In this document: one piece after another, positions 6,001 to 33,100 of the stretch
Position numbering within the stretch: the first letter of the stretch is position 1
Layout of the letters: every line of letters begins with the position of its first letter
From: Ruditapes philippinarum
Taxonomy: Eukaryota
DNA: 64,000 nucleotides
Direction: 5' to 3'
Assembly: GCF_026571515.1 (NCBI RefSeq)
Contig: NW_026852804.1
Span: forward strand, 1 to 64,000
Notes under the pieces: generated by a model
Database searches by the model: none
What the model was told of the DNA's origin: nothing
What the model saw: only the letters and a program-made list of their open reading frames with translations
Made by a program: the position numbers and the translations under genes

Positions 6001-6595
6001 TACTGTCGTGTTTTCATCATCGTACTATCGCGTTTTCACCATCGTACTATCGCGTTTTCACCATCGTACTATCGCGTTTTTATCATCAGTAGTATAGGCG
6101 TCGGTTTGGCGCCACGACTGCGCATGCGCGGCGCCATATTGGATTCTATTTTTAGAATGACATCATCGTTCTATTTTAAGAATGTGATCATCCGTCTATT
6201 TTTAGAATGACATTATTGTTCTATTTTTAATCTCCCGGAAGTATACGGAGCTGACTCGTATACACGATTTAGGGCTTGAATCGCGGACATTGAGGGTCAG
6301 GTCCTCGGCCCTAGACGGAGAGATAATTACCATTATGAAGATAAAAGAAATGTTTGTAAATAGATACGTACTTAACATTTTAAATTTAAAAAACAAATAG
6401 TTTTTTTAATATGTTCAAAAAATAATATTGATACAAATATAACTCGTTTACTTACCTACATTTAGTAAGGAAATGACTGTCATAGCGTAATGTTCTTGTA
6501 GACTGCGCATGATCTATTTTTAGTCGCGGTATTTCACAACCACCAGGAGCTATTTCATCAGCCCCACGCGGGTGTCAATGAAAGAAAAAGGCATT

Positions 6596-9095: not shown

Positions 9096-9320
9096 GAGGA
9101 GGAGGAGGAGGTGGAGGAGGAGGAGGTGGAGGAGGAGGAGGAGGAGGAGGTGGAGGAGGAGGAGGAGGAGAGGGGAGAAGGTGAAGAAGGTGGAGGAGGA
9201 AAAGAAGAAGCAGGAGGGGTAGGAGGTGTAGGAGGAAGAGGAGGAGGAGGAGGTGGAGAGGAGGAGGAGGAGGAGGAGAGAAGGAGGGGAGGAGGAGGAG
9301 GAGGTGGTGGCGGAGGAGAA
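9096..9320 (+). repeat. (GGA)n purine-rich low-complexity tract in the palindrome spacer
   Basis: Long imperfect GGA run. It explains the poly-E/G/P/S ORFs in the track. Confidence 0.95.
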
Positions 9321-12300
9321 GGAAAGGAATTTTTTTCCTGTATCTGCAAACGTAAGAATCGTTAAATAAACTTGTAAGAAGGCAGATTTCTTCGGCTTTT
9401 ATAAATCTTGCTACTAAAATGAATAAGTGTTCACCACCACCGCCACCGCCATCACCACCACCACCACCTCCTGCTTCTTCTTCGAACGCTTCTTTTACTC
9501 CATTTATTACGATTAACCGTAGCGATTCATTCATTGCCGATTTAGATAGCGAGGAGTAAAGGTTGGGGGTAAGCTTATTTTAGTTATTTTAATGATTTTT
9601 ACGCGTGATTGGTTTCACTTGCGGTTTGTTAGTTTCAGCTTGTCGCATTTGTCAAGACCTTTCGTTTGATATGCAACATACCCATGTTATGTCCAGAAAT
9701 AAGCGGAGAATTGTCATTTAACGCATGAGTGATTTTGACTTCCAGTATGAACTTTATTATCAACAGCGTCTGAAAGTACTCTTAAATACCTTTAATTTGA
9801 TACCAATATGGATAAAATCGACCCATAAATAAGAACACCACAGTCGTTTGAATATTTTTGAACAATGTAGTGCAATAACGCATTATCTAACATTGGTGGT
9901 TAAAATACACTAAGTCTATATCTGTAATATCTCAGTAACTCATAATGATAGACCCATAAACTTATACATTTTTTGAATCTACTCGTCGAGATCTTTTTAA
10001 CGGTATATAAATTAAGGGGTTTTGTAAACTTTGAAAATTTGGGTTTAAAAATCGCTGTTACGTAATAACTCTGTAACAGTTGAAAATCGAATCGATAATG
10101 TGGGGTGTAAATTAAAGGTATTGAACTGTTCTTTCAAATGGTAGTCAACAATTAAAAATCATATCGTATTTGGTTGCTCTAGTAACCAAAATATATATTT
10201 TTCACGCATGAGTGATTTCACATCCGGTTTGATCGCGTGACTAAAATGTACTCGTCAAGACCTTCAATTTGATACCAAACACGACTATGTTTCGTTCATA
10301 AACGAAAAAGTTATGCGCGTGTTTCCGCATGAGTGATTTTGTCTGCCATATTGAAACTCTCCTATCTCAGAAACAGTAAAAGATAGATCCATATAATAAT
10401 ACATTTTCTGTATCTACTCGCAGAGATCTTTCAAACGGCATATAAATCTAAGGGTTTTATGAACTTTAAAAAAATGGTTTAAAAACCTCGTTCTTCAATT
10501 TCATTGGCTAATCAAAAATAGCAATACCGGTTTAAACCTGTCGTAACTGGACCGTTTAACGATAGGCTATAGTAACTTGTCATAAATAGTTTGATAGGCA
10601 AGGAGTAAAGACTGGGGGTAAGCTTATTTTAGTTATTTTAATGACTTTTTACGCATGAGTGATTTTAATTTCGATTTTAGTCCGTATTCATAAAGAGCGG
10701 CTTGAGACATTTCATTTGATACCAAACACGCCTTAGTTCGGTCCGGACGTGGTACAGAAAACACGTTTTTACGCTTCAGTGATTTCAGTTCCGGTCCAAT
10801 GGCTTTTTGAATAGCGTCAGGTAACAGGTGTGGTAAAATGCTTTCCAACGATACCAAACAAGGTATATATTCGGTCAAGTAATAACGGAAAAAATCGATT
10901 TTGAAATTTCTGTGACGTCACTTCCGGTGACTTTAAACTCGAATTACTCGAAAACGGTAAAAGATAAACCCATAAAACTATATATTTTCTTAATCAGCGC
11001 GACGAGACGAATCGATTGGTAAAAAGTTCTAACGTTTTTATTGACTTTCGCAATTTAGGGTTTAAAATCGCTCTTGCGTCATAACTCAAAAACGGCTGAA
11101 AATCGAATCGAGAACCCCGGGTCAAAACGAAAGCTTTCGGTTTATTCTATCTTATAACGACTTTATCTCAAAAATTTTGAGCGTAAACGGTTGCCCAAAC
11201 GATAAAAAACCGGTTTATAGCTTAAATGTATTATAAATTTCATTTAAAATCAGTTTACAACTTTCTTATACATAAGTGTATTCATTTAAAATTTATTTTT
11301 GTATAAAAAATAAGAATCTGAAGTGTTCATAAAAATCACAAAATTTGACCAGTTGCTAAGGGCAACCGTGTTTAAAATATGCAATCAGTTTACCGTAGCA
11401 TGCACTTAAAAGGAACGGTACAATATATGAAGTGTTAAAATATGTTAATGCATGCGTAGCAATTTCTCGTTAATGAGTTTTTACTTAATGGTCGCTGCAT
11501 TTAAAAGGATAAGATTAATGAAAAGCTATATTTAGTTCCGCTAGGTATTGTAAATCTAGACTAAGTGGCGACTGTACTTGACGGTCGCTGCGTTTGAAAG
11601 GATAATAGATTCTTTTGTGATTAATGAAAAGTTATATTTAGTAACGAAGGATAAAGGGTTTTTGTTCAAAATAGTTCCGCTAGGTATTGTGAATCTAGAC
11701 TGAGCGGCGACTGTACTTAATGCCTTTTTCTTTCATTGACACCCGCGTGGGGCTGATGAAATAGCTCCTGGTGGTTGTGAAATACCGCGACTAAAAATAG
11801 ATCATGCGCAGTCTACAAGAACGTTACGCTATGACAGTCATTTCCTTACTAAATGTAGGTAAGTAAACGAGTTATATTTTATAAATATTATTTATTTTGA
11901 ACATATTAAAAAAAACTATTTTTTATAAATTAAAATGTTAAGTACGTATCTATTTACAAACATTTCTTTTATCTGTCATAATGGTAATTATCTCTCCGTC
12001 TAGGGCCGAGGACCTGACCCTCAATGTCCGCGATTCAAGCCCTAAATCGTGTATACGAGTCAGCTCCGTATACTTCCGGGAGATTAAAAATAGAACAATA
12101 ATGTCATTCTAAAAATAGACGGATGATCACATTCTTAAAATAGAACGATGATGTCATTCTAAAAATAGAATCCAATATGGCGCCGCGCATGCGCAGTCGT
12201 GGCGCCAAACCGACGCCTATACTACTATCATCGTACTGTCGTGTTTTCATCATCGTACTATCGCGTTTTCACCATCGTACTGTCGTTATTTCATCATCGT

Positions 12301-13629
12301 ACTATCGCGTTTTCATCATCGTACTATCGCGTTTTCACCATCGTAGTTTCGTGATTTCGTGTTTTCACCTTTGTACTTTCGACTATCGCGTTTCAGATTA
12401 ACACATTCATAGGCGATGGCCCTAAGGTCATTCCGGAATGACGTTAGGACCATCGCCTATGAATGGTTTGATCTGAAACGCGATACTCGACAGTACGATG
12501 ATGAAAACGCGAAATCACGAAACTACGATGGTGAAAACGCGACAGTACGATGGTGAAAACACGATAGTTTATCGCGTTTTCATCATCGTAGTATCGTACT
12601 GTCGCAATTTCATTATCGTACTATCGCGTTTTCATCATCGTGCTTTCGCGTTTTCACCATCGTAGTTTCGTGATTTCGCGTTTACACCATCGTACTATCG
12701 ACTATCGTGTTTTAGATCAACACGTTTATTGGCGATGGCCCTAACGGCATTCCGTAGACATCGCAACAACACGCCGCACTACAACGCACCGTTTCGCTAG
12801 CGCCAACACGATACACAAAGGTGTTCCAAATCAGCCACAATAGTAAGAAGACACTTTTAAATAACCGTACTTTCCACATGGATTAAGTGCAGTTGAAATA
12901 TACGGTGTCCTTCCTGGACAATTAAAGGACAGCTATTGACATGCTCGATTTTTTCTTGAAGTTTTGTCCGCCTTTCTGTATTTTTATAGATAAAGTAGCA
13001 AGATTTTACCATTCTCGCAAAATACTTTTTCGCGCCATTCAACATTGAATTTGTCGAATAGTTGAACTTTAAACAAGAGATTTAGTCAATCTTAACAGGC
13101 GATATTAAACTGCCTAAAACTGGACACTATAGAAACCGATGGACAGTAGTGCGCATCTCATGAAAGTATCCAGTTTATCGAGAAATTGGATGGCCATTTC
13201 CAGGACCAAAGTAACTGATGATTTTAGCATTGACAAAACTAACAGTTGTTCGTTGGAAGATGGTACAGCACTTAGTTTTTTTTTATATCGTCTGACATTC
13301 TATAAAAAAACAAACATTAACCGTGACATTTACTGTACCCACCGGCCCACACATCAAACAATCAACTGCCATAAACGGCTGAACATTGCGTTAAGGTAAG
13401 CATGTGAATAAGGAAACTACTAAAAAAAAGATATAATCCAAATAACATTGACGCAAAACAAGTTAGAGACGATTTCAATGTTGACTGACATACTCGATTT
13501 TAGTAAAATTTGACATTCTGCTAATTGATGACAATTTCAGATTTTTGCTCAAGGAAACATGGCGCCTCGACAAGCGATGCCAGAATTCCAAGTCCGCCGT
13601 TTCAGTCCTTTGCTAGAAGAAATTACATC

Positions 13630-18650: not shown

Positions 18651-20724
18651 TATATAATTGTTATATTGACTTAAAACTTTTACAAATGAATTTCTTTTAT
18701 ATAAAACAAATTATTTATATCAGACTGGCGCTCTTGAGTTGTACAAAGGGACTGGCCGGTCAATATATTTCCAATGTGTCCTGAATCGGGCAGTTGACTG
18801 CATGTTACCTTAAGTTTGTTAGTAAGAATTTAATGAATGTGAATCAAGTTTATTTTTTTTGTAATTGGTATAATACCTTCAATTATGATCACGGTGCTTT
18901 TTTAAACATCTGTAGTTAATCTTTGGAACAACTATAATGTATTTTTGTTCTAAAATCTAAGTCCACTGATACAATGAAACAACAACATTTTTTACATTTG
19001 TCACTGACAAAACTAAAGAGGTCATGGCAAAACTATTCATGTTATAAAAGATTATCCCGACAAATGGCATCTTAAAAGTTTTCACATTCAGTGATATTAA
19101 CCACTAAAATAATCTAAATGTATGGGAATAGAGACAATTATTAAAAGCCTGTAAATTAAGTTTTAGATGATACATTTTCTCTGTGTTTGTAAATTACAAT
19201 TACGATGTTACATTTGTCTGAGACATTTAAGTACGTCAATACTGTTGTTCGTGGCAATAAAATTCCTGACAATGTAACAAGAATTAAATCCTTTTGACCG
19301 ACATGTTGTTTTTAAAGACTGTGATAAGTTGTTTAGGATCTGAAACCATAAAAAAGTGCAAATGTATGTATAGCTTGCTGCCTGTCACATGATACTCAAA
19401 ACTGTTATACAGACATAATATACTTAGTTCTGCACCAATTACTCATAACATAAGTTATGAGAAGCATGTCTACAGAGTATGATCGAACTAGAAATCATCG
19501 AACCATCTATATACATGTGTAGTGAACAAGCACAGACAAGATATCTTTTTTGTTATCATAAATATATCTAAAATTGATGCGTTACCTGATAGTGAGATTC
19601 AAACAAATGCATATACAAAAATTATTGATAGGACAGGACACTCACAAGCTTCCAAAGCTTTCTGCCAAATCCCAAAATGTATTGTGTAAATATATCGAAT
19701 AAAATATGTTTAAATCAATTCAATTGATTAATTAATTTCTATCTTGTGTGTTATCAAATTAGAAAAACACAATTAATTATAATATGACTAATGATAATTT
19801 AATTTAATATACAAACATAAAGTTAAATTGTACATGTTGAAATTATCTGATTTTGTCCGTACATTAATCCGCGGAATTTGAAAGAGGCTAGTCTTCAATA
19901 ATATTCAATAATTCACAGATCCAATTTGTCTTAATAATGTTTATTGCTATTGTTTGCATATTCAAAAATGCTTCAAACTTTAGCATAATATTCTTTTTAA
20001 TAAAACACCTCATTGGACAAGTTGAATTTGCTTCCTAAGTACTAATACTGATTAAGCTAAGGAAAATATATGGGCTATTCAATTAACTAACTTGTCGGTA
20101 TGAAGATCGTATATTTAAGAAGAAAGGTAAGAATATCAGGTTTGTTAAAAATGTTTCTCGACGTAATGAATATAACCAGGAAACAGTTGAATTAGCTATA
20201 TGTAAATATATACCCGCACCAGAAAATATATTATACTGATATGGAAAACAAACATTCCAAAAACTACATGTTATTCCTAATAGAAAACTACAATCGTTCT
20301 TTAATCTAAATTTGGTTATGATGAAATGATGTCCCTGTTGACTGATTATAACACCGCAAAGCTTTTTATGCGATACAACAGGAAATGATTTACCATAATT
20401 TTCCCATAAAATGCTTCACAGACAAATGGATTACTCATTAAAAGTCCGTTTTCCTTACTAGGTCACATTTGTCTATGGTAAGAAATAATTGATTGATATT
20501 TCAATTAAAGGCATCTTCTGGCATATTCTTTAATATTAATTAATTAGGGAATGTGTTTATATATTTTGCAAGAGGATCATATTTTTTGGAACTTTTCATA
20601 AAGTTTCTTCGATTTCCTCCAAATTTAAAACAAAAGTCTCTCTTGGAAAAGAGATTAATTTTTTTTAACTCGCTCTGAGGTCAAGGTCATGATTTTGATG
20701 TCTTAAAGTCCTTTAGCCTGGCTT

Positions 20725-21778
20725 AAATTACGGAAATATTTTACTAAAATTTACAATCGGAACTTTGATTTAATTTCTAAATTCAATAGTGATTTAAAAA
20801 CTCTTCTGCGACAAGGGATTAGCCAGCCTGGTTTTTATGGCGCTGTGATTTACAAACTTCGTAAGATTTTGGGTCATGGTAATTTTTCTGCAGTTTTTAC
20901 TAAAATCATTAAACGTTTTATTAAAAGAGGTTATGACCCTACTATTTTAAGACATACTGCATGTTTAGTGTTCAACCCTTTTACAGTTGGACACTACGCT
21001 TTCCTCTTTTTATTGCATCTGACGGACCAAGTGGGAGACTATGATGGATAGTTCGTAAAGCCCTTTGGGACTGAATTATCTTAATGTTCGTCATTTGCCT
21101 TGCTTCGTCGGGCCCTTGTAGGTGATTTTCTTTTTGCTCTGTCTTCCTTGAGGACATTGAGTACTTTTGTTATGGTCATTGGGTTTACTTTTATATGTTT
21201 CTACATGATCATTTTAGTGTTTTACTTATTTAACCTTTTGAAATCATGACAACTGTTAGAATTTCACTTGGCGGGGATTCATTTTATTTACACTGTCTCG
21301 TTTATAGGAACATGGTGGGGCTAAGAGCGAGGTTTGGTGCACCATTAACCGGTTTTAACTCCCCAGCAGTCATTATTATGCTGCATGCTGCTGACCGTTC
21401 CAAGGCGGCGCCCACTGTGTTCCTCAGGTGTATGTCTATGTTGTTTCATACTGTTTTGGTGACACTTTTGCTTGTGTCCCTTGTTGTTTTCTCGTCTACG
21501 GTAAGTATCTTCCCCATTGCCTCTAGATTTTATTTCTTTGATTAACCCTCCCCCCCTTCCCCCGGTCTCCTGTCCCCTTTGTGGGCCTATTATTACTTTC
21601 TTTGAATTCCTAATCAGTAACAAATTATTTATCATTTAATGATTAACCTGTTTTTGCCTTTCCTGTTTTTGTTTGGGGTCCGCCTGGGCTCCTTGTCATT
21701 GGTTCTTGTTGCTGGGTCACATGGGGGTTGCGTTCATTGAACGCCGCCTTTCCTTGTTGATCTTGTTTATCATATTTT
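20725..21778 (+). mobile_element. 5'-truncated Penelope-like retroelement (ORF C-terminus plus 3' region)
   Basis: Open frame 20725-21051 KLRKYFTKIYNRNFDLISKFNSDLKTLLRQGISQPGFYGAVIYKLRKILG...LRHTACLVFNPFTV resembles, from recall, the post-RT C-terminus of mollusc Penelope-like ORFs. The 3' end TGATCTTGTTTATCATATTTT is linked to the ORF in a second, internally deleted copy (38650-38868). Confidence 0.7.
21314..21416 (+). ncRNA. Twister ribozyme-like motif, P5-type permutation, slightly degenerate
   Basis: P4/L4 ACC-GU-UCC-AA-GG-C-GG matches the twister GU-NNN-AA-NN-C loop. Upstream GAG(C)-GA-GG gives P2 3' strand, catalytic GA and T1 partner. UAA-CUC-CC gives cleavage loop, P2 and T2. P3 CAGCAG/CUGCUG; P5 GUGGG/CCCAC closes the fold. 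Confidence 0.65.
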
Positions 21779-23386
21779 GTCAACCAGCGTCCATTTTCGC
21801 GGGCCTGGTCTAGTTGTCTCAAGTCCTTTACCTGCAATTTTGTCAGGGTTTTGCCCTTAAAGAGCAGGGTTTGACCTGAAAATTTCAGGGCACGGACTTT
21901 CGATGCAGGCCTCGAAAATGCAGGGGTTCGAAACCCGCTAGGGCCTTTGGCAACAGAGTTACAGCGCGTCAACTACAGTCCTGTCGGATAAGGATTGTCG
22001 TGAGAGGCCCCTTTACCCTCGGGCCTTTAGTGGCTCCGTTTACCCTAACCCTAGACCCTAACCCGTGTGTATAAAGTCCGGGAGGGCCTCACGATTAGAC
22101 GATTTTCGAAATTTAACCTTTTTTCTCTTAACATTTTTTTGTCTCCATGGAAACATCAGATAGCCAATCACAAAGAAGACTTTTATCGATATCAACCTGG
22201 GTAGTGAACCCTGTATAATTGTTGTATAGTCCCGCGATAAAAGTCCTTCCGTGGACTTAGCTCAGGGGCCTCTATTTGATTAAAAAGTAATATACGCCAT
22301 TTTGAGAAAACCACATGGAGAGTTTAGGGGGAGATAATTGAAGGGAATCAATTTGCTGTTAGTTCAGTTGTTCTGTAGATATAGAGCTTCCTAGTGTTGT
22401 CTTTGTGCGTGATGTGGATTTTTTACGTTTGTTTTTCTATGTCAAGAGGAAGGGTTTCCACGTGAAGGAAACTGAACTGTGCGGGTACCGGGGTTACGGC
22501 GTGTACCATCAGGCGGACCTGGATTCTGTGGTCACTTTTTTAAAGGATCAGAGGATCGAGTTCCGTCTGATGGTTGAGGCTGGGTCACTGAACTCGAGTA
22601 CCGAGTACTCCCCCGACCCCGGCTGCTTCTAACTCTGAGGCAATGTCACGGGGGACTCTCGACGGGGCCTCTGCCTCCGAGTGAGTCTGTCTTTTGTACA
22701 TATGTTGTTGGTTTGCTTGTTCTGTTTCTTATGTTCTTGTTACTTTCATTGATTGGCTCTGTGATTCTTTGAGCTCCTTGATTTCAAGGCCGGTCGCAAA
22801 TCGACTGGCCTACCCCTTGCCTAGTCTACCGACCTCATCGCGGTGCAAGGGTGAACATCTACGAGAAGTAGGTGGCCAACGGGTAGACAATAAACAATGT
22901 GAGGTCCAGAAAAATAAGAGCCCCTGCTTGACAGAGTCAGGATTATATATGACAGTTTGTCATGACTGAAGCAGAGTCTTGTCACTTTTACGGTTTTTTT
23001 TGTCAACCAAAGGCCCCTCAGCAGAGTTCTAAACATCAGTCCCTTAACTTCCAAGGACTAACCCTACAGGCCTATAACGACATTGCTTAGGGGTTAGTGG
23101 CCTATGGACTAAGACGAGGGGACTTTGTAAACCCTGGTTCTTGAACCCCATTTGATTTAGTCCGGTACATAGTCGTTAAGTCCTTCTTTTGTCGTTATAG
23201 TCCCTGAAATTGTCGGTTAAGTCCCTCTTGGTATACCATCCTGCATAATTGCTATAGTCCCGCTATAAAAGTCCATTTAAAATATGATAAACAAGAACAA
23301 TCTCGTTAATGTCCACTACAGTCCTTCCAGTATATATTGAAAAACTACATTTTTTTACAGGGTTCGTCTCCATGGAAACGTCGGAT

Positions 23387-23554
23387 AGCCAATCAGAAAG
23401 TAGAGAATTTATCGATATCAACTTGGGTAGTGAACACGTATAATTGCTATAGTCCCGTGATAAAAGTCCTTCAGTCAGGGATTCTACCGATTATAAACTC
23501 GGGGTATCGATTTTTTGTTATATAGTAGCCCGCTTCTCTTCTCATCACTCATTC
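23387..23554 (+). promoter_or_regulatory. Candidate Pol II promoter of the recombinase gene (CCAAT, TATA-like and Inr-like motifs)
   Basis: AGCCAATCAG at about 23387, TATAAA at 23492-23497 and TCATTC at about 23549, upstream of ATG 23564. Motif evidence only. Confidence 0.3.
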
Positions 23555-23698
23555 TGCAGTTAGATGCCAAAGAGACAGGACGTCAGCATGCCTCCTAAAC
23601 AGCACAGAAATCGTTACAAGTGCACGATATACAAGGCTCAGGTTGTTAAAATATGAAAAACAAGATCAACAAGGAAAGGCGGCGTTGAATGAACGCAC

Positions 23699-25635
23699 AA
23701 CATAGATAAATACAGAATCCCTAAAGAAAGCCCAACACGGCAAAATTGAAAATGTTGCAGGCTCGGTTTGATTGAGCCTGTTCATGGACGGTATTGGAAA
23801 GTGCAAGTTACCGTCCACGCCCCCTAGCACCGGCTTAAGCAGAATTCAACATTTAAACATGAAATAGTAAAATTTTGAATTTAGAAATATCCGCAGATGT
23901 GTTCATACGGCGGTCCATCATGGAACTTCAATGTGACACTTCCGTGTCATTCCATGAAAAGCGGCGTATGGTCCCCAAGTAATAAAAAGCGTGTGCCCTA
24001 AACGAGAAAACAATGGGCGGAACGAAATAAAATGGAATTTTGAAAAGGGGATCTGAGATTATGAAGCCTGCATATCACAGACAAGACGTCAAAAGACAAA
24101 TTTTAAAAAGCAGGCAACATATCCTAAGGGTGATTCAACATTATTCAAGTAGGAATATTGGAACCACCCAACTAGAAAATGCCGAAAAGTTGAAATTAAA
24201 AATACCACAAGCACAACAATAATGTCGTGCTGAACGATCTTCAAGGATCGAAAATATAACATCATTGATTAAATGTACGGGGAGACTTTTTACAGCCGCC
24301 ACACGGCACAAATAACACGGATGTGATCATAACATAGATAAATACAGAATCCCTAAAGAAAGCCCAACACGGCAAAATTGAAAATGTTGCAGGCTCGGTT
24401 TGATTGAGCCTGTTCATGGACGGTATAGGTCACTCAACACATTAGAGGCCAACACATGCACCAGCTAGGGTCCGAGCAAAAGTGTCAGCTCCGGGGCATT
24501 TCTCCTTAATTGGCGAGAAGTTCGTGGTCCTAAACGTACGGTACTATAAACTGCGTCCTGTGTTGGAGTGCCAAAAAATGTTGACAGATATACCGCGGCA
24601 CTTAAGAGATGTCCATTCCATCTCGCGGATGGAATGTAAGCACGGAAGCGACCAGGATATGCAATCTCGATTGGACAATTCCACAAGAGGGTTCCATGAT
24701 AACCGCCGTATGAACACATCTGCGGATGTCTCTAAATTCAAAATTTTACCATTTTCGTGTGACATTTCGTGTTACCATTTTCGTGTACCGTCCATGAACA
24801 GGCTCAATCAAACCGAGCCTGCAACATTACAATTTTGTCGTGTTGGGCTTTCTTTAGGGATTCTGTATTTCTCTATTTTATTGTCACATCCGTGTTATTT
24901 GTGCCGTGTGGCGGCTGTAAAACGTCTCCCCGCACATTTAATCAATGATGTTATATTTTCGATCTTTGAAGATCGTTCAGCGCGACATTATTGTTGTGTA
25001 TACATTTTACATGGTATTTTTAGTTTCTTGTATTTGGCCTTTTTCAATTTGGGTGGTTCCAATATTCCTACTTGAATACTGTTTAATTACCCTTAGGATA
25101 TGTTGCCTGCTTTTTAAATTTGTCTTTTGACGTCTTATCATCCCCTTTCAAAATTCCATTTTATTTAGTTCCGCCCATTGTTTTCACGTTTAGGGCAAAC
25201 GCATTCTTTTACTTGGGGACCATACGCCGCTTTTCATGGAATGACACTACTGTGTCACATTGAAGGTTCCATGAAAACCGCCGTATGAACACATCTGCGG
25301 ATGTTTCAAAATTTCACCATTTTAGTGTTTAAATGTTGAATTCTGCTTAAGCCGGTGCTAGGGGGCGTGGACGGTAACTTGCATTTTTCAGTACCGTCCA
25401 TGAACAGGCTCAATAAAACCGAGCCTGCAACATTTTCAATTCTGTCGTGTTGGGCTTTCCTTAGGGATTCTGTATTTCTCTGTTATGTTGAATTCTGCTT
25501 AAGCCGGTGCTAGGGGGCGTGGACGGTAACTTGCACTTTCCAGTACCGTCCATGAACAGGCTCAATCAAACCGAGCCTGCAACATTTTCAATTTTGTTGT
25601 GTTAGAATTTCTTTAGGGATTCTGTTTTTCTCTAT
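23699..25635. repeat. Cluster of a structured dispersed repeat family: about 630-bp units with terminal direct repeats, arranged as an inverted pair
   Basis: 23699-24426 is a diverged reverse complement of about 24786-25482; extra tandem end at 25486-25635. Hairpins TGGACGGTA..TACCGTCCA and CAGGCTC..GAGCCTG. Further copies at about 42165-42250, 51270-51420, 52299-52362 and 52992-53205. Confidence 0.85.
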
Positions 25636-26998
25636 TTTAGAGAGACAAGAGTTTAGAGACCCGTATCCGTCGAGCGCGGAAAAAAGGAGAGTTGCGGATC
25701 AACAGAAACGACTTGATTCGTCAAGTTTAAGGTAGGTTTCAGTTCAAATTTACTCTTGAGCATTGAAAATAAAGAATACATTCATTACTATCTCAGAAAT
25801 TATCGTAATAAAAATTTCATTAAAAAAAAAAAATTAAATTAAATATCTAAAGTGTGTATAAGATTAGCCTTTTTTCAAAATAAAATTAATTAAATATTTC
25901 AAAGTAGAATAAGAACTTAAATAATAACAACATTTTACATCTTCCAGGTCATCTTCCCGTTCCAGGAGATCCGCCCGTTCCAGGAGATTCTCCCGTTCCA
26001 ACAGATCCAGGAGAGAAAGAAGAATGCGGCCAGACCGGTCCAGGTCAACCTTACGAGGGCAACATTCAAGATCCAGGTAGGTTCATATTTAATATAATGT
26101 ACAATCGTCGTAATTTCAACAGCAATAATAGACACTGGAGTGATGAAATTATAATAATAATGCACACTGGTTACAAGGATGGCATAATAATACATACATA
26201 TATACATACATACATACATAACGGCTCAAGTCCAGACTGGTGAAAATAATGGTAAAATACATAATAAATACATCAAAATGCATAAATTTCAGATCTTCGA
26301 GTTCTTCAACTGTCTGAAAAGGTAGCAGCCCTAACAGTGGACACTCACAACAAAGGTAGGTTATATTTTGCACATATTTATACTAATTACATAAGACTTT
26401 GTTCGGGTTTCTACTAAAATCCCTTATTGTCGTTACAGTCCTTTGTTTGTCGGGTAAGTCCCTCTTGTCGTTAGGGTTATGAGACGCTTCCAAACAGCAA
26501 ACACTTCCAAGGACTTACCCTAACAGGCCTTTTACAACATTGCTCATGGGCAGCGTTACATACATGCATACATACATGCATACATACATACAAACATACG
26601 TACATTCATTACTATCTCAGAAGTTAATATAATAAAAATTTCAGTAGAAAAATTAAAATAAAAATTAAAAATCTAGTCAGTATTAGGGTAGACTTTTTAA
26701 ATAATAAAATTACTAATTGCAGGAGAATAAGAAATTAATAACAACATTCTATATCTTCCAGGTCACCCTCCCGTTCCAGGAGATCCTCCCGTTCCAGGAG
26801 ATCTTCCCGTTCAAGTTCCTCCGTTCCAGGAGAGACAGATGGTCACTCACATCACCCACACGACAATCACATTCAAGATCATGGTAGGTTCAAATTTAAT
26901 TTAATGTATTGTGCGTGTAAATATACATTCGTCTATAATAGACACTGGAGATAATGACATTATTATAATACACACTGGTTAGAATGTTGGTTTAATAA

Positions 26999-27191
26999 NN
27001 NNNNNNNNNNNNNNNNNNNNNNNNNNNNNNNNNNNNNNNNNNNNNNNNNNNNNNNNNNNNNNNNNNNNNNNNNNNNNNNNNNNNNNNNNNNNNNNNNNNN
27101 NNNNNNNNNNNNNNNNNNNNNNNNNNNNNNNNNNNNNNNNNNNNNNNNNNNNNNNNNNNNNNNNNNNNNNNNNNNNNNNNNNNNNNNNNNN
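26999..27191. other. Assembly gap (N run)
   Basis: Run of n. Confidence 1.
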
Positions 27192-27881
27192 TTTCTGTCA
27201 GTATAGTCACTGAAATTGTTGCGTTAGTCCCCGATTGTCGTTAGCGTCCGTACCGAAGTCCCTGATAGTCGTTAGAGTCCTTAATTTATCGGTGAAGTCC
27301 CTGAAACTGTCGGTTAAGTCCCTCTTCTCGTGAGAGTCCCTGTCATGTCGGTTTAGTCCCTCTTGCAGTTAAGAGTTATGAGTGCTTCCTTACAGCCAAC
27401 ACTTTCAAGGTCTTGCCATAACAGGACTAGAGTTATAGTCCTTTTTTGCCGCTATAGTCCAGACTGGTGTGAATGATGGTATAATATACAAATTGAAGAG
27501 AAAGAGGATATAATAATACACACTGGAGACAGGGAGAGAGGATACCATTATACACACTGTAGAGAATAAAACATAAATACATCATATTGCATAAATTTCA
27601 GATCGTCAACTACCACTTCTTCGAGGACAAGTTCTTCAAGAGTTGTCAGATGTAGAACCAGCCCTAAACCTTGACCTTCGCAACAGAGGTAGGTTATATT
27701 TTGTACATATATATACTAATAGCACAAGACTTTGTTTGGGGTTCTTCTGTAGTCCCTTATTGTCGTTACAGTCCTTTGTTTGTCGGGTAAGTCCCTCTTG
27801 TCGTTAGGGTTACGAGACGATTCCAAACAGCAAACACTTCCAAGGACTTACCCTAACAGGCCTTTCACGACATTGCTCCTG

Positions 27882-28058
27882 NNNNNNNNNNNNNNNNNNN
27901 NNNNNNNNNNNNNNNNNNNNNNNNNNNNNNNNNNNNNNNNNNNNNNNNNNNNNNNNNNNNNNNNNNNNNNNNNNNNNNNNNNNNNNNNNNNNNNNNNNNN
28001 NNNNNNNNNNNNNNNNNNNNNNNNNNNNNNNNNNNNNNNNNNNNNNNNNNNNNNNNNN
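27882..28058. other. Assembly gap (N run)
   Basis: Run of n. Confidence 1.
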
Positions 28059-28656
28059 TTTTTTGTCGGTTAAGTCCCTATAGTTGTAGATTTAGTCCCT
28101 CTTGTCGTGAGAGTTCCTGTAATTTTCCGTTTAGTCCTGCGTGTCGTTAGTGTTAGGAGAGGCTTCCAAACAGCCAACACTTCAAGGGACTTACTCTAAC
28201 AGGCCTTTAACGGCACTGCTTCTGGTCATTGTTACATACAACCATACATACATACAACCATACATACATACAAGGGTTGGGGTTAGTTTCTAATACTATT
28301 TGATTTAAGCTCGATTGTGAATGAATCAAGCAAGCATCACTGCTTCACTTTACGTATTTTTCATGTTGTAGGACTCGCCTCCTCGACGATATTCGCGAAT
28401 CTATGCGTCTTGAAATTGTTCGCAAATATCATGGTGGTCAGATGGCTGATGACGCATCAAGCAACAGACATGGCTCTTCAACCAACTCCCCGGAATAATG
28501 AGCGTGTTGAACAGGGAGAAGAAGGTTCGGGCGAATTATTTGTATTCAAATGAGATGAAGCGGGTCAAAGCGCTACTTAACCTTGAAGACTTCCATGAAA
28601 AGCCTGAAGTCAAAGAGGCGATTTCCAATTTGTCTACACACCCTACGCCATACAAT

Positions 28657-28783
28657 TTGATAAACAAGATCAACAAGGAAAGGCGGCGTTCAATGAACGC
28701 AACCCCCATATGACCCAGCAACAAGAACCAATGGCAAGGAGCCCAGGCGGACCCCAAACAAAAACAGGACAGGGCAAAGACAG
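28657..28783 (-). mobile_element. 3'-end fragment of the Penelope-like element inserted in the recombinase exon
   Basis: Reverse complement of about 21647-21774; recombinase-like reading resumes after it. Confidence 0.85.
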
Positions 28784-29650
28784 AGCAACATTCAACTAAG
28801 AGCCCGGTTCCTTATCTCTACTCTTATTATCGACGGAGGGCCAAGGCCCTCCGTCATTCAAAATATAAGTTTGACCGAGGTGGACATGGCGGAAGAAGTA
28901 AAGTTGAAAGACAGAACTACATACTGGGTAATACCAGTTCATCATCACAAAACAGACTTCTTTACAAAAATAATGTCTTGATAACTTTCATTAAAATTGT
29001 ATTGTAGTTTTGCAATATCTCGTATGTGTACATGCAATTCAATCTAGTTTGCAAGTATTAATAGGATGTTACATATGTAAAGGGCCTTTGGCCTACATTA
29101 ATAAACTTTTTTTTTCTGTTCTATTACAGGAATATTCTACCTTGCATGCAAAGATGCAGCCTTTCGGGCAATCAAACAGTTGAGACATTCGATATATAAT
29201 TCCAAATACCTTTTTTGTCTACCAAATGGCAATCAGATGTCAAGTAGCCGTGTCAACTACGAGCTCAATATGACCTGGGCAATTTGCGAAATGCGTAAGA
29301 CGTATGGTCCGTTCAATGCCACTCTCAACAGGAAACGCCTAGCCACAAAAATGGCGACAATCTCGCCGTTGCTTTCGCGCCAAATGGCGAAACAACTCCG
29401 ACACGCTTTGAACACACACCAGAAATATTACAAAATGGTACATGGGCCGGACGAGGCTGCAAAAGTAATCAAATAAAATCAAATCCATATTTATTTCTTG
29501 TCGGATAACATATTTACATTTTTTTTTTATTTTGGTTTCTATTTATAAATTGCGGTGCCTTTGTTCGGTTGCTCCTTTGTTGACCTTAATCTCCTCGTTT
29601 TATAGAAGACATTATAAGTGAAACTACTTTAAATTACATTTTACTAGGTG

Positions 29651-29877
29651 ATACACGAGGCCAGAAAGACAATACAGGTACAGGCGGAGGTACACGCCAC
29701 CGAACAAGGACAAGAAGGAAACAACATACACGAGGCCAGAAATTCAATACAGGTAAAGGCGGAGGTACACGCCACCGAACAAGGACAAGAAGGAAACAAC
29801 ATACACGGGGCCAGAAATACAATACAGGTAAAGGCGGAGGTACACGCTCCCGAACAAGGACAAGAAGGAAACAAAAT
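29651..29877 (+). repeat. 75-bp tandem repeat x3, in frame (IHEARKTIQVQAEVHATEQGQEGNN)
   Basis: Units start at 29651, 29726 and 29801. Confidence 0.95.
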
Positions 29878-29980
29878 ACTAGAGGAAACTTCCCCTCCCC
29901 ATTCTCCCGGACAGCTATAGGATAACAGAACAGCACAGTGGGTGCTTAAAGTAGATCCCGATCTAACCTCACCCCTGTAT

Positions 29981-30134
29981 GCATCACCCTTACCTGGGAT
30001 AGGAAACAGCAGCTGAACATCATCTGCTGGAAGGCGGAGATGGACGCCAGATGAGAAGCATCACCCTTACCTGGGATAGGAAACAGCAGCTGAACATCAT
30101 CTGCTGGAAGGCGGAGATGGACGCCAGATGAGAA
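29981..30134 (+). repeat. Perfect 77-bp tandem duplication
   Basis: GCATCACCCTTACC..GCCAGATGAGAA at 29981-30057 and 30058-30134. Confidence 0.95.
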
Positions 30135-33100
30135 CCAGGAGTTCTTTAATGATTCAGGGCTTTAATTCTTCTAGCAAAAGAAAAGTCATCTAAACCTTTA
30201 ATTTATACTGTTCGAAATGCAAGAAGAGAGATAAATAAGGAAAAGTGGTATTCTCTAAACGAAAATGCAATCAGAGAAAAAATATGGAACATGTTCAAAT
30301 GCTTAAGTAAGCACGGTATGCTTTCTTTAACATCACAATAGACACCAACCATTCATTTTTATATTAAAACTTATAAAAATAAAGTCCTATAAAAAAATGA
30401 ATATTATAGAGTAAAAATACATATTTGATTCCGTTATAATTTTGTACATACACACGAACTATTTTTCTTTGTTTTGATTTAATTGTTTAATTATTGTACA
30501 TACATTTGATTTTGTTAATGATTTTTGTAAATAACCAATCAATTATTTTTGTATAATATTAATTGTTTAATTATTGTACATACATTCAATGATTTTTATT
30601 TATTTACAAGCACATCTGTGATAAATCATTTTGTATAATCTCTGATTCTGTTATAATCTTTTGTAATTGTTCAGGGTTTATTGTTGCCTGAGCAGAGTCC
30701 TGTCACACTTACCATTTTTTTTGTCAACCAAAGGCCCCTGAGCAGAGTCCTAAACATCGGTTTTGCGGGGTTTTAATCCTGAGCAGAGTCCTGTCGCACC
30801 TACGTCTTTGTCAACCAATATTTTTCCGGTTCGTCTCCATGGAAACGTCGTAAAGCCAATCAGAAAGAAAACTTTTTTTAAAATTTTATTTGACCCTCAG
30901 TCTAGGAGGGTTTAAAAATTTGCTTCCGCTTCTATTTCCACTTGTAGGAAAGTGGTCTGCCAACTATGTAGCAGCGGAAGCATGGAGCTAGCGGTAGGCA
31001 GGAGATGTTACTCAGGTTATAACACCTCACCACCTGCCGTGCACAGAACATGCAGAACCAGTGACGGCACATAGCTTTGAAAGGCTGATGCCTTACATAT
31101 TATACATACCATAGATAAACGCATACAATTTGCTAACTGTTAAATATAACCATAAATTTGGTACTAAATCAGCATTTACGTTTACTTTAATTTTTTTTAC
31201 AAATATTTCCAAGTGTAAAACATGCATATAATATATTTAAAAAAAGTGTTTAGCAACGGCCCCTTACCATAAAATAAACAACTAGAATACAAGTAAACAA
31301 TATTCCAAGATAATAAAAAATAAGTGCGATTATTTGACAATCCAATTGACCAGGATTATTTAAAGTTGTTAGTTACTTGATATACTATGTATTTTTTTTT
31401 ATTAAAACCAGATAATCGTAAACAATTTTTGTATCAAACAAGACAACATAAATATTACATAAAATACACGATAGTGAACTTGATATATCTCTTCCGGAAT
31501 CGAAAAAGACGAAATATTTCTTCTCAGCAAAAACAAATTAATTGAATAGTCTTACAGCCCGAGATATATTTCTATTTAAGAAAAATATATTAAAAGACAG
31601 CACAGGTATCATGTCCCTGGTCTTACCAATATGTATGGTAAAAAAGAGGCCATAGTTTTTTTCTAGACAAAAACCCATACTTTCTGTCCATAGATCGTGC
31701 TTAAAACAAAATTTAATTTTACATTAAGATTTAGAATATGATCTTATATTTGAAATTACCTTATATCCGTTTGTACTTACAATCATAAAACACAATTAAA
31801 AGAAAAGAAATGTCCTGGTTTTTTGCTGTCAAACTTTATGTAAACTAAATCTATATTATAATATAAACAATCTTATTTCAAAGGAAGCTATATTATCAAA
31901 ATATAATCCAATAACTAATTCTAAAATAAAAAGTTTGTTTCGCTTTTAATGTCAATAATTCTAAAAGTATGTAAACAAAACAACAGTAATGCGAATGTTC
32001 TTTGACTTTTGAATTAACATTATGGTGTAATTTATTAGGATCATAGACAATCTGATAAAAGTGAATTAATGTATTGAATATACATAGCAATTTCTGCAAG
32101 ACATCAACAATAAACACCACATTTTATACAATTAAAGCCTGGACGTTTTCTGGATGTGTTCTAGTATTTTACAAAAATTCAAATATTCATAATACTTCAT
32201 GCAACAAATAACTCTTCATCAACATCTTTGAATAGTTTTTTTTTAAAGTTTTAATAAGCCCAGTGATACAAGCAAGAGTTAACGTTAAAGCAATCCTTGT
32301 GCATAAAGTGACAATAAATTACAGCATACGGGGTCTCTAAGGACTCTTTGATATTAATGCAATGCAGACACATTCTTGTAAGGATTTAAACATTGATTTT
32401 GAAAAATACATTTTGTTTTAATGCAAAAAATAGTGCTTATTGAATGAGTTTCTCTATTGAGGTCAATTTTTCTGATTTAACAGTGGAAAACACCTACGTA
32501 CTTTGGAATGAAAATGAAACTGTTATTTTCCTTAAAAATAAGGCGAAAAGAAAACAATACAAATCTTCCATACAATTATTTTTTTCAATTTCAATATTTA
32601 ATACGAATCTGTCTTGACACTTTCCGGTCGATCATCTTGTCAAGTTGAGAGCAGCGTCCTTAGATATGTATGTAATTTAGTTTTCTGTCGTCGCTATTGT
32701 TATTGTATATTGTCACCGAGCAGTGACTTATTTAATGGATAAAATGAGTAATATACCAAAGTACCCTATACAACAACAAACAACAAATATTTCTTATAGT
32801 AAGTGCAAAATCAATGACATAAGCGACCTTATATATAAATGTACCAATTACGTTGGCAAATAAAAAAGATGTGCTTTCATTAAATAGTCACACAATCTCA
32901 ATTTAAACTATATTATTTTCATTTCGCTACTTTGTCTAATAATCGGTACGTTTAAGACAAATCAAAGTTACGCTTTTAGTTCGACAAAAGTAAGAACTTA
33001 CGAAATATATTTCCTTTCGCGGAGTATTCATGATTTGCGTAGTTCGGTCATTATAAAAAAACAGCACGAAAAAAGGTGAAAGTGTGTTTTCAATTCTAAA

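Follow-up and report, generated by a model that had tools for sequence, protein, structure and literature searches.

Layout of the locus and of the recombinase gene

The window (the whole stretch of Ruditapes philippinarum DNA analysed, 64,000 nucleotides) contains, at 23588-30341, a plus-strand gene that encodes two zinc fingers, a Ser/Arg-rich linker, a tyrosine-recombinase domain and a C-terminal domain. A small gene, ORF0, and a predicted HDV-like ribozyme lie upstream of it. The recombinase gene is damaged by three repeat insertions (23650-24429, 24687-25639 and 28654-28787) as well as by frameshifts and stops. The features are listed below.

21790..22140, +, upstream element-associated sequence; 21790-21986 matches C944 and C3335 at 88-89%
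22141..22168, +, X-box-like and CCAAT module, putative promoter before ORF0 (motif pattern)
22381..22632, +, ORF0, ~80 aa (33% match to C3724 ORF0, E 1.7e-4; three-way alignment)
22787..22811, +, GC-rich hairpin, separated by 2 nt from the predicted cut; precedes 9/9 ORF0-type ribozymes examined
22814..22888, +, HDV-like ribozyme fold (descriptor, genome-wide core pattern, covariation)
23366..23393, +, second X-box-like and CCAAT module, putative promoter ~200 nt before the recombinase start (motif pattern)
23588..23649, +, exon 1, piece 1: from the start codon to midway through zinc finger 1 (intact exon in C7248)
23650..24429, no strand, repeat insertion made up of a family A end and family B (high read depth in 4/4 runs)
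24430..24686, +, exon 1, piece 2, frameshifted twice: remainder of finger 1, then finger 2 (81% to C2228)
24687..25639, no strand, inserted repeats, family B inverted (paralogue comparison)
25640..25731, +, exon 1, piece 3 (RDPYPSSAEKRR), phase-2 donor
25948..26076, +, linker exon A, Ser/Arg-rich (depth in run X1)
26293..26355, +, Ser-rich linker exon B with a TGA in frame
26762..26883, +, linker exon A2 (a duplicated A) of 122 nt, changing the phase from 2 to 1
27602..27688, +, linker exon B2, duplicate of B (X1 depth 2.22 observed, 2.22 predicted)
28372..28653, +, recombinase exon 1, piece 1: remaining core-binding domain, one frameshift (profile positions from ~40)
28654..28787, no strand, insertion, a family A repeat end that C9521 and C3504 lack
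28788..28959, +, recombinase exon 1, piece 2: catalytic R and K, donor deleted (profile iE 4.9e-15)
29130..29464, +, recombinase exon 2: TxxRK, H and Y (profile iE 9.1e-30; downstream intron spliced)
29648..30341, +, last exon: 75-bp repeats, two stops, 77-bp duplication, C-terminal RRxWT...KIW domain (C-termini of C7129, C9521 and C9387)
30342..30688, +, 3' UTR with AATAAA (relatives)
30689..31098, +, downstream element-associated sequence with third X-box/CCAAT module (85-88% to C14980, C5151 and C9387)

On the left the element-associated sequence abuts an inserted repeat (21000-21778); on the right, C14980, C5151 and C9387 continue past the equivalent of 31098 with sequence absent from the window. 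A ribozyme-like match lies near the C3335 copy of the upstream sequence. The module at 22141, 23366 and 30833 combines what we take to be X-box and CCAAT motifs, and its pattern was found five times in related loci, all of this subfamily. The segments 22138-22252 and 23363-23475 are 86% alike. Judged by their motifs, these modules are putative promoters.

The sequence-only reading had assembled one plus-strand gene, at 23564..29920, by removing introns and inserted repeats. Paralogues bore this out, being contiguous across all three insertions: both fingers lie within one open exon in C7248, finger 2 continues into the next segment without the window's insertion in C2228, and C9521 and C3504 are uninterrupted at 28656/28786. 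Both ends of the proposed span had to be moved, as the conserved ATG is that at 23588 (the one at 23564 is ACG in C9521 and C7248) and the gene ends at 30341.

Splicing was examined in contigs and reads from four public runs. The intron 29464|29648, proposed earlier as the junction GCA AAA|GTG ATA, was spliced in contigs of 3/4 runs, from three studies, with the joint at 29462>29646 (the same cut shifted by 2). At the other proposed junction, ACA G|GA ATA, the phase held and the donor did not, since this copy lacks 11 nt, the GT among them, that C9521 and C3504 retain; their reading at this place is CAA G|GT. The SR-rich exons were upheld by three observations: the window, C2228 and C9521 agree in a phase-2 exit from the exon upstream of the linker; linker exon A, compared with two C9521 copies, showed 4/11 and 4/10 synonymous changes in the SR frame versus 1/10 and 2/10 in the alternative frame; and at the equivalent place the linker of C11466, an intronless relative, is also S/R-rich. 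Linker exon B contains a TGA, and the final one and a half linker exons reach the recombinase only via a non-SR frame. The counterpart of recombinase exon 1, piece 1, is open in phase 1 in C9521:79593, and an X1 contig joins at 28370, preceded by 425 letters from elsewhere. Run X1 also contains a near-identical spliced allele without at least the 77-bp duplication. Run X23 showed no exon depth except 0.12 in one bin.

The two C2H2-like fingers of the earlier reading are present, each with one Cys lost in this copy (CTIYK vs CAICK in finger 1, LRPVLEC vs LCPIMEC in finger 2), and Pfam matched them weakly (zf-C2H2_4, E 0.089, for relative L063). In intronless relatives the fingers, linker and recombinase share one reading frame, so the three parts do belong to one gene. 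The start of the core-binding domain, ~55 residues, was unmatched in every window-type locus within the readable sequence outside two N runs.

Recombinase family, introns and ORF0

The catalytic residues R 28844-46 (GPRP), K 28949-51 (HKT), R 29330-32 (TLNRK), H 29402-04 (LRH) and Y 29429-31 follow the superfamily order R, K, (H)xxR, H/W, Y and align with the family members, as the sequence-only reading had them. The Thr in place of the HxxR His is a family-wide trait and no lesion of this copy. The expected integrase-fold homology was found: family profile A2 matched XerA 5hxy at E 2.9e-11, spanning the core-binding and catalytic parts, and 4a8e at 5e-5. PF00589 was matched by 22/65 aligned family members (E<=0.05), and a single-sequence structure model of the recombinase was unusable (pLDDT 34). 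On this homology, the predicted product is a member of the tyrosine recombinase superfamily. Compared with C9521:68086, the catalytic exon carries 39 synonymous and 18 non-synonymous codon changes; other copy pairs gave 36:21 and, against C3504, 17:19. The C-terminal RRxWT...KIW domain had no Pfam match, and the Atlas cluster neighbouring it is 40% PF00249, suggesting that this conserved domain is probably Myb/SANT-like.

The element is repeated, with 19 matches to the catalytic exon and 60 to an intronless relative, and tandem units occur in C15046 and C9521. Neither an RT-sized frame nor another long frame was present in the near-complete relative C14609:193300-198800, and RT and RNase H frames were absent from both this relative and C5028:1-6500. 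The earlier description of a repeated recombinase element without RT, here in a dead copy, therefore stands, and it agrees with Cryptons in the broad sense in being a YR-encoding repeated element without reverse transcriptase. Two parts of that description did not survive. The domain layout, which had been called unusual, is not rare, for 83 homologues were found and look-alike clusters of animal proteins exist in the Atlas. Introns are not a trait of the element as a whole: many copies in the genome have none, the intronless unit being ~5 kb with one small extra gene, and the intron-bearing lineage is nested among them in the tree. Because many relatives are intronless, the introns were probably gained in the window's lineage, an apparent example of introns acquired within a transposon family. 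Every window-type copy seen in the genome is broken or partial and sits in a repeat-rich tandem cluster, and element loci are crowded with two other repeat families. The earlier reading lacked ORF0, the C-terminal domain and the ribozymes, which form the unusual part of the locus.

ORF0 starts with ATA where relatives carry ATG. Named homologues of the C3724 type come from Dreissena polymorpha, at four loci (multicopy). Its model (pLDDT 93) has a predicted ferredoxin-like beta-alpha-beta-beta-alpha-beta fold, and a structure search gave no specific match (best Z 7.7, rmsd 2.6, 65 aligned). ORF0 and its ribozyme occur without the recombinase in the fetched DNA of four loci (C6012, C1796, C10163 and C3724), and AATAAA is missing before the ORF0 ribozyme.

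Predicted HDV-like ribozymes behind both genes in relatives

The sequence 22814-22888 satisfies the HDV-like layout, a nested double pseudoknot with P1 (7 bp, CCCUUGC/GCAAGGG), P2 (GUCUACC/GGUAGAC), P3 (3 bp, ACC/GGU), P1.1 (CA/UG), a P4 hairpin and a J4/2 with C; the predicted cut is 5' of C22814. A descriptor search of the 64-kb window returned this single match, and perfect-P1 matches in 15 shuffles numbered 0. Genome-wide (1.4 Gb), the core pattern gave 18 matches and a looser pattern 26, while the reversed-pattern control gave 0 in both. All 26 core matches lie within 1.5 kb of an element marker, with none elsewhere in the genome by these patterns. The full fold was completed by 19/26, although P1, P2 and P4 lie outside the search pattern, and 7/26 failed. 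An Rfam scan of 21700-31200 found no HDV-type family up to E 1. Seven metagenome and two viral loci with the core pattern had neither recombinase nor ORF0, and the ribozyme-recombinase association is known from one genome only.

Covariation was measured in a MAFFT alignment of 16 copies, whose rows were chosen by descriptor or pattern and from which P1 was excluded because it was misaligned by one column. Both sides had changed in 8/17 pairs; both-side-change cells numbered 35 versus 12.7 in shuffles (0/500 shuffles reached 35), and pairing was 95.6% versus 23-42% in slid controls. This signal stems from a few subfamily splits, and within the 11 ORF0-type ribozymes alone covariation was not significant (226/500 shuffles). 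The fold with compensatory changes recurs at the same two positions in subfamilies only ~30% identical in protein, and ribozyme sequence types track the recombinase subfamilies. We take the J4/2 C to be catalytic and the L3 U and G to have roles of their own; all three were present in 11/11 distinct descriptor-selected copies (the descriptor demands the C), and the C in 24/26 pattern-selected copies. These results suggest that the predicted fold likely cuts its own transcript.

Better-preserved relatives have the order ORF0, ribozyme, recombinase gene, ribozyme, and two same-strand ribozymes bracket the recombinase gene in C15046 and C14609. The second ribozyme starts ~55 nt past the equivalent of 30688 (C5151, C9387, C15639, C518 and C7129) and is deleted from the window copy; AATAAA stands upstream of it in 2/3 relatives checked. 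Around the first ribozyme, the upstream sequence is conserved and divergence begins directly downstream.

Interpretation and comparison with known systems

We consider that the window probably holds a damaged copy of a YR element with two genes that is likely mobilised as DNA (Crypton-like). In its better-preserved relatives each gene is followed by a predicted HDV-like ribozyme, likely cutting the transcript to end it. Each gene would be driven by its own promoter, and the ribozyme would cleave co-transcriptionally at its 5' edge. For ORF0, the mRNA 3' end would come from this cleavage, with the leftover hairpin protecting it; for the recombinase gene, the ribozyme would act as a terminator that blocks read-through into the next tandem unit or around an excised circle. 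The 3'-end role is suggested by the conserved upstream and divergent downstream sequence of the first ribozyme, the reverse of the retrotransposon pattern as far as the available account gives it (PMC6765202), by the four loci that keep ORF0 and ribozyme without recombinase, and by the position of the second ribozyme after the last gene. The recombinase would cut the element out as a DNA circle and insert it anew, with the fingers and the C-terminal domain binding the element ends. Mobility as DNA is only inferred, because the analysis found no element ends (fixed in neither subfamily), no target duplication and neither empty sites nor circles. In the part of the literature available to us, the Crypton circle model is proposed, not demonstrated, and transposition is not shown experimentally (PMC13565253). 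With introns gained and part of the core-binding domain missing, the window lineage may have been non-autonomous before this copy decayed.

A ribozyme could instead form the 5' end of the recombinase RNA, as in retrotransposons. An X1 contig (22844-23539) starts in the ribozyme, covers the putative second promoter and stops shortly ahead of the start codon, and depth is 0.3-1.1 upstream versus 5.7-8.6 downstream of the ribozyme, observations that fit this role equally; a 5'-end role was proposed for the R2 and L1Tc ribozymes in the accounts available (PMC6765202, PMC3185411). Contigs are, however, uninformative on starts, and the raw reads of X23 have no depth at the site. A promoter-like module also sits between ribozyme and start codon, and the sequence downstream of the ribozyme is unconserved, with a leader of 700-900 nt. 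Spliced introns suggest ordinary capped Pol II transcription, which likewise speaks against a ribozyme-made 5' end, and we regard it as unlikely. We hold as improbable that the element moves via RNA, a unit-length ribozyme-to-ribozyme molecule (5'-OH, 2',3'-cyclic phosphate) being circularised or reverse-transcribed in trans and its DNA copy integrated by the recombinase, DIRS/Ngaro-like without an RT of its own. The paired ribozymes of C15046 and C14609, the many intronless copies and the tandem arrays would suit it, but copies reach past both ribozymes, with ORF0 and putative promoters that such an RNA would miss; the tree indicates intron gain in the window lineage, not loss through retrocopying; and intron-bearing copies are also multicopy.

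The window-type lineage might also be a domesticated or regulatory host gene, with nucleic-acid-binding fingers, SR linker and truncated recombinase, of which the assembly has a damaged allele. The X1 allele, the intron gain, the core-binding start missing in all window-type copies examined, and purifying selection on the catalytic exon between copies (39:18 and 36:21, but 17:19 vs C3504) agree with this. The broken state and tandem clustering of the window-type copies, the retained ORF0, ribozyme and end-region repeats, and the low expression (the X23 depths) make it doubtful to a high degree. That the motifs are inactive remnants, or parts of an unrelated retro-element gathering in the same repeat-rich regions, would accord with the two other repeat families and the seven incomplete folds; it is very improbable given that all 26 genome-wide matches are at this element, at two fixed positions and with types following the recombinase subfamilies, and none elsewhere in the 1.4 Gb. 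An extension of the favoured two-gene reading seems rather unlikely to us: HDV-like ribozymes would substitute for the usual 3'-end formation, or back it up, at every gene of this lineage, with conservation across bivalves and wider, and the ribozyme-to-ribozyme RNA with the recombinase gene would be released as a discrete, ligatable molecule in expression or mobility. On that reading the element would be a DNA transposon with one step of its life cycle catalysed by RNA.

Several classes of tyrosine-recombinase element were compared. DIRS/Ngaro elements share the presence of a tyrosine recombinase in an animal mobile element; membership was rejected because the near-complete relative has no frame for RT or RNase H and the window lineage has spliced introns. 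CryptonF was rejected because GCR1_C is absent among the 15 Pfam families matched by 65 members. DUF3435 recombinases, which we take to be the captains of fungal Starships, resemble the family in Atlas look-alike clusters (score 0.91) and as tyrosine recombinases with finger and C-terminal extension, but PF11917 matched 0/65 members and the unit here is ~5 kb in intronless copies. CryptonV DNA transposons were reportedly described by Kapitonov and Jurka in 2012 (Repbase Reports). Like them, this is an animal tyrosine-recombinase element without RT, and it is possibly Repbase's CryptonV. Some CryptonV families insert in microsatellites, according to the account at hand (PMC8869645). Here many copies contain or adjoin (TATG)n or (TACA)n tracts. 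Among those that share the 5' motif, only 3/7 come after (TATG)n, the tract there following the element's own 3' motif, and 4/7 do not; the accessible accounts of CryptonV mention neither ribozyme nor second gene. CryptonA and CryptonI are described, in the text available, as animal YR transposons without terminal repeats or C-terminal domain, DUF3504 deriving from an animal Crypton YR (Kojima and Jurka 2011, PMC3212892). The family here has N-terminal fingers and a conserved C-terminal domain, and membership was rejected on that domain and on DUF3504 matches in 0/65 members (E<=0.05). The near-intact intronless relatives in the genome offer a two-gene unit open to the study of Crypton transposition.

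In the portions of the reviews available, self-cleaving ribozymes of mobile DNA are associated with retrotransposons and circular RNAs and make the 5' end of the element RNA; none was found described there for DNA transposons. In the present element, which has no RT, a ribozyme follows each gene, suggesting a natural use as 3'-end makers or terminators. The ribozymes of L1Tc/ingi and R2, which by the accessible accounts form the 5' end of RT-encoding or RT-dependent elements (PMC3185411, PMC4035085, PMC6765202), share the P1, P2, P3 (3 bp), P1.1 and P4 layout, and C at +1 is found here as in active trypanosomatid HDV-like ribozymes, in the parts available (PMC4035085). They differ in that the ribozyme here is internal, behind each gene of a recombinase element without RT, with the conserved sequence upstream.

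Anatomy and transcripts of the recombinase gene

The window, the first 64 kb of contig C1291, has a GC-richer island of 36-45% in which the element lies, compared with about 30% across most of the remaining sequence. Self-comparison and paralogues identified three repeat insertions, at 23650-24429, 24687-25639 and 28654-28787, and the gene was resolved into the following exons.

Exons of the tyrosine-recombinase gene in the window
23588-25731 (insertions set aside), plus strand: exon 1, with two C2H2-like fingers
25948-26076, 26293-26355, 26762-26883 and 27602-27688, plus strand: four small exons, a tandem duplication of the A-B pair
28372-28959 and 29130-29464, plus strand: recombinase exons
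29648-30341, plus strand: last exon

AG acceptors and GT donors were found at all exons except for the donor near 28960, which was lost through an 11-nt deletion relative to the related contigs C9521 and C3504. From 25640 to the recombinase exon start, the chain was in frame with one stop. In addition, the reading frame is shifted within exon 1 and around 28465, each finger lacks one Cys, and the last exon contains two stops and a 77-bp duplication. With its frameshifts, stops, lost donor, lost finger cysteines and duplication the window copy is dead, as the sequence-only reading had held, and the two C2H2-like fingers which it described were both encoded by exon 1, an exon that is unbroken and open in the related contig C7248. 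Overall, its observation was confirmed with corrections and its interpretation was partly supported. Searches of Pfam with the window's own gene pieces, and with an intact relative, returned nothing relevant.

Between the fingers and the recombinase lie the linker exons A, B, A2 and B2, read as Ser/Arg-rich (SR). A misreading of exon A, whose true frame would be a stop-free Pro/Gly/Asp frame, was ruled out by the phase of the donor upstream of the linker (phase 2 in three lineages), by the synonymous changes (4/11 and 4/10 in the SR frame versus 1/10 and 2/10 in the other), and by the S/R-rich linker at the same place in the intronless relative C11466. For exon A, the same three results supported the SR-rich reading proposed earlier. 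Exons B and B2 may belong to either frame: they showed two synonymous changes whichever was used, and both stops fell in the SR frame. Entry into the recombinase exon is required in phase 1. The 11 window-type contigs searched had no match to the first 55 or so residues of the core-binding domain. The simplest reading is that this start was a lost exon, and that the 122-nt exon A2 restores the frame in the window copy. The core-binding exon could also be hidden in N runs, although the contig of sequencing run X1 leaves little space for one.

Evidence from public sequencing runs was drawn from four (X1, X2, X8 and X23) of the 24 listed. The intron 29465-29647 was spliced out in contigs of X1, X2 and X8, representing three studies, among which X8 alone is recorded as RNA. 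A 644-nt contig of X1 matched 28370-28588 with one difference, preceded by 425 letters from elsewhere, and the four small exons amount to 401 nt. If this contig holds the small exons, the depths expected in eight bins are 1.89, 1.99, 1.02, 3.12, 0, 0, 2.22 and 0, and those observed in X1 were 2.6, 1.99, 0.95, 3.73, 0, 0, 2.22 and 0. Depth thus indirectly supported the presence of the small exons, whose joints were not among the matches shown. X1 also carried an allele without the 77-bp duplication. The raw reads of X23 (6% read) gave coverage almost confined to the inserted repeats.

Recombinase family, probable intron gain and associated repeats

The catalytic exon had 19 matches in the 1.41-Gb genome. 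One of them, the intronless gene L009, carries the same two fingers together with a Ser-rich linker and the recombinase, supporting the claim that all three belong to one gene; used as a query, it gave 60 genome matches and, at E<=0.001, 83 proteins from databases. XerA was matched (E 2.9e-11) by a profile built from 65 sequences, in agreement with the proposed tyrosine-recombinase identity. PF00589 was matched by 22 of the 65 profile members at E<=0.05, and DUF3504, DUF3435 and GCR1_C by none of them. Searching the PDB with the single recombinase sequence produced one chance match, single-sequence structure modelling of the recombinase gave no usable fold, and word-based protein searches returned near-identical sequences only. 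In the Atlas, look-alikes of a homologue fell into animal clusters without a name (Chordata, Arthropoda), one cnidarian cluster in which 40% had a Myb domain, and DUF3435 clusters from fungi. As a protein it is ordinary for its family of animal recombinases, which is widespread and little described; the unusual architecture in the earlier description was not borne out for its domains.

In a midpoint-rooted FastTree of 31 catalytic domains, the window and C9521 copies were sister to the intronless C11466 (support 0.994), and this group was nested in a clade with further intronless copies (support 0.958). Because the intron-bearing copies nest among intronless ones, the lineage to which the window copy belongs probably acquired both recombinase introns.

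The inserted repeat families A (window 21000-21778) and B (23696-24425) were present in most loci of this group of elements, where they often sit within coding exons and in one case within a ribozyme P4. Beside family A, a frame at 20707-21051 is reminiscent of the final part of a Penelope-type RT; its Pfam search found nothing. Pieces of the element also formed tandem arrays of their own (C1982:5434-9744, C7248:202400-206720, C5151:12800-15400 and C15639:154800-157000), with units of ORF0, the small gene upstream of the recombinase gene (eight copies of about 580 bp), the finger exon (five copies of about 1006 bp), the 3' UTR with ribozyme (about five copies of about 535 bp) and a repeat unit of 67 bp. 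Elsewhere in the window, two blocks of tandem repeats with units of 22 and 25 bp, mirror images of each other (5784-6229 and 12085-12694), lie on either side of a 139-bp array and a GAG triplet run (9096-9323), an arrangement that resembles a further element whose ends are long and inverted.

Predicted HDV-like ribozymes and ORF0

The sole non-coding DNA common to the window and the intronless subfamily was 22705-22890, located between ORF0 and the recombinase gene.

Features upstream of the recombinase gene
22381-22632: ORF0, a homologue of the small frames that precede relatives lacking introns
22814-22888: nested double pseudoknot (predicted HDV-like fold); a hairpin also lies within 22705-22890

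A descriptor scan found no second match within the window; on 15 shuffled windows it gave no perfect-P1 matches, and 0.67 per window when one P1 mismatch was allowed. With the same descriptor, relatives showed additional copies at 0.4-0.7 kb past the stop codon of the recombinase, and at 2.2 kb in one case (C12074). In contig C15046, the succession ORF0, ribozyme, recombinase gene, ribozyme recurred as a tandem unit. In window-type relatives the second ribozyme begins about 55 nt past the point matching 30688, where the window switches to other sequence, and the second ribozyme is absent from it. Genome-wide, a 22-nt core pattern occurred 18 times, a looser pattern 26 times and the reversed control never; an element marker lay within 1.5 kb of the core in 26/26, and 19 of the 26 had the complete fold. 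When both ribozyme types were aligned, compensatory change was strong (8/17 pairs, P1 left out of the count), and in the ORF0-type ribozymes alone (n = 11) it was not significant. P1 occurred as CCCUUGC/GCAAGGG, CCCUCGC/GCGAGGG and CCCCUUG/CAAGGGG; active HDV-like ribozymes with an initial C have been reported in trypanosomatid elements (PMC4035085). Rfam detected no ribozyme. The metagenome and viral contigs searched held no relatives of the recombinase or ORF0, and nine loci outside the genome with the core pattern had neither. The predicted ribozyme behind each gene is the new feature; its support at the level of sequence is strong, and it is known from one genome.

Similar folds were also observed elsewhere. 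In a 170-kb IMG/VR viral contig (L122:5985-6046), an intergenic stretch carried the whole HDV-like fold with the same core, upstream of a frame named serpin-like by eye, with recombinase and ORF0 absent nearby. HDV-like cores whose P2, P3 and P4 pair were seen in three contigs that had no recombinase or ORF0: two AT-rich ones from metagenomes (L126:1499-1520 and L127:1174-1195, minus strand) and a viral one (L210:6001-6026). In one subfamily the downstream ribozyme is followed, after about 250-300 nt, by a second, degenerate core (C5028:4478-4800, C6898:131456-131800, C5911:14100-14500).

The ORF0 type of contig C3724 had homologues at four loci of the bivalve Dreissena polymorpha. The ORF0 model was confident (pLDDT 93) and ferredoxin-like, and the structure search gave generic ferredoxin-like matches, none specific (best Z 7.7), with no Pfam family and no Atlas match. 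Our guess is a regulatory or accessory role. Telomere-like words (CCCTAA/GGGTTAG) recurred in the window (22034-22068) and in relatives, close to ORF0 and in flanking sequence of the two subfamilies; the C-terminal domain may bind them.

Proposed ribozyme role and comparison with known systems

In HDV-like ribozymes the cut falls at the 5' edge (PMC4035085, PMC3185411). The sequence conserved here is upstream of the predicted cut and comprises a U-rich stretch as well as a hairpin; in 3/3 copies checked, the interval from the ORF0 stop to the ribozyme had no AATAAA. Each gene in the window subfamily was preceded by a promoter-like module, which we take to be X-box/CCAAT. Because of the conserved upstream sequence, the lack of AATAAA and the module before each gene, we favour a role in which the ribozymes would form 3' ends and terminate transcripts. 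A 5'-end, IRES-like role, as proposed for R2 and L1Tc (PMC6765202), would fit an X1 contig that spans 22844-23539 and a depth greater downstream than upstream of the ribozyme; it is less favoured, with the upstream conservation and the promoter-like module before each gene standing against it.

The element probably works like a Crypton and has no RT. It may move via a DNA circle as in the Crypton model, itself not demonstrated (PMC13565253); its ends and target were not fixed from the copies compared. In the literature searched, no paper was found that connects Cryptons or DNA transposons with HDV-like ribozymes; an earlier description may exist in Repbase or in subscription journals. The element differs from CryptonA/I and CryptonF in the features given for them in PMC3212892. 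Insertion into microsatellites is described for some CryptonV families; here, among seven copies sharing a 5' motif, three were preceded by (TATG)n and four were not. The likeliest named home of the element is CryptonV, known here from the brief descriptions in PMC8869645 and PMC5753468.
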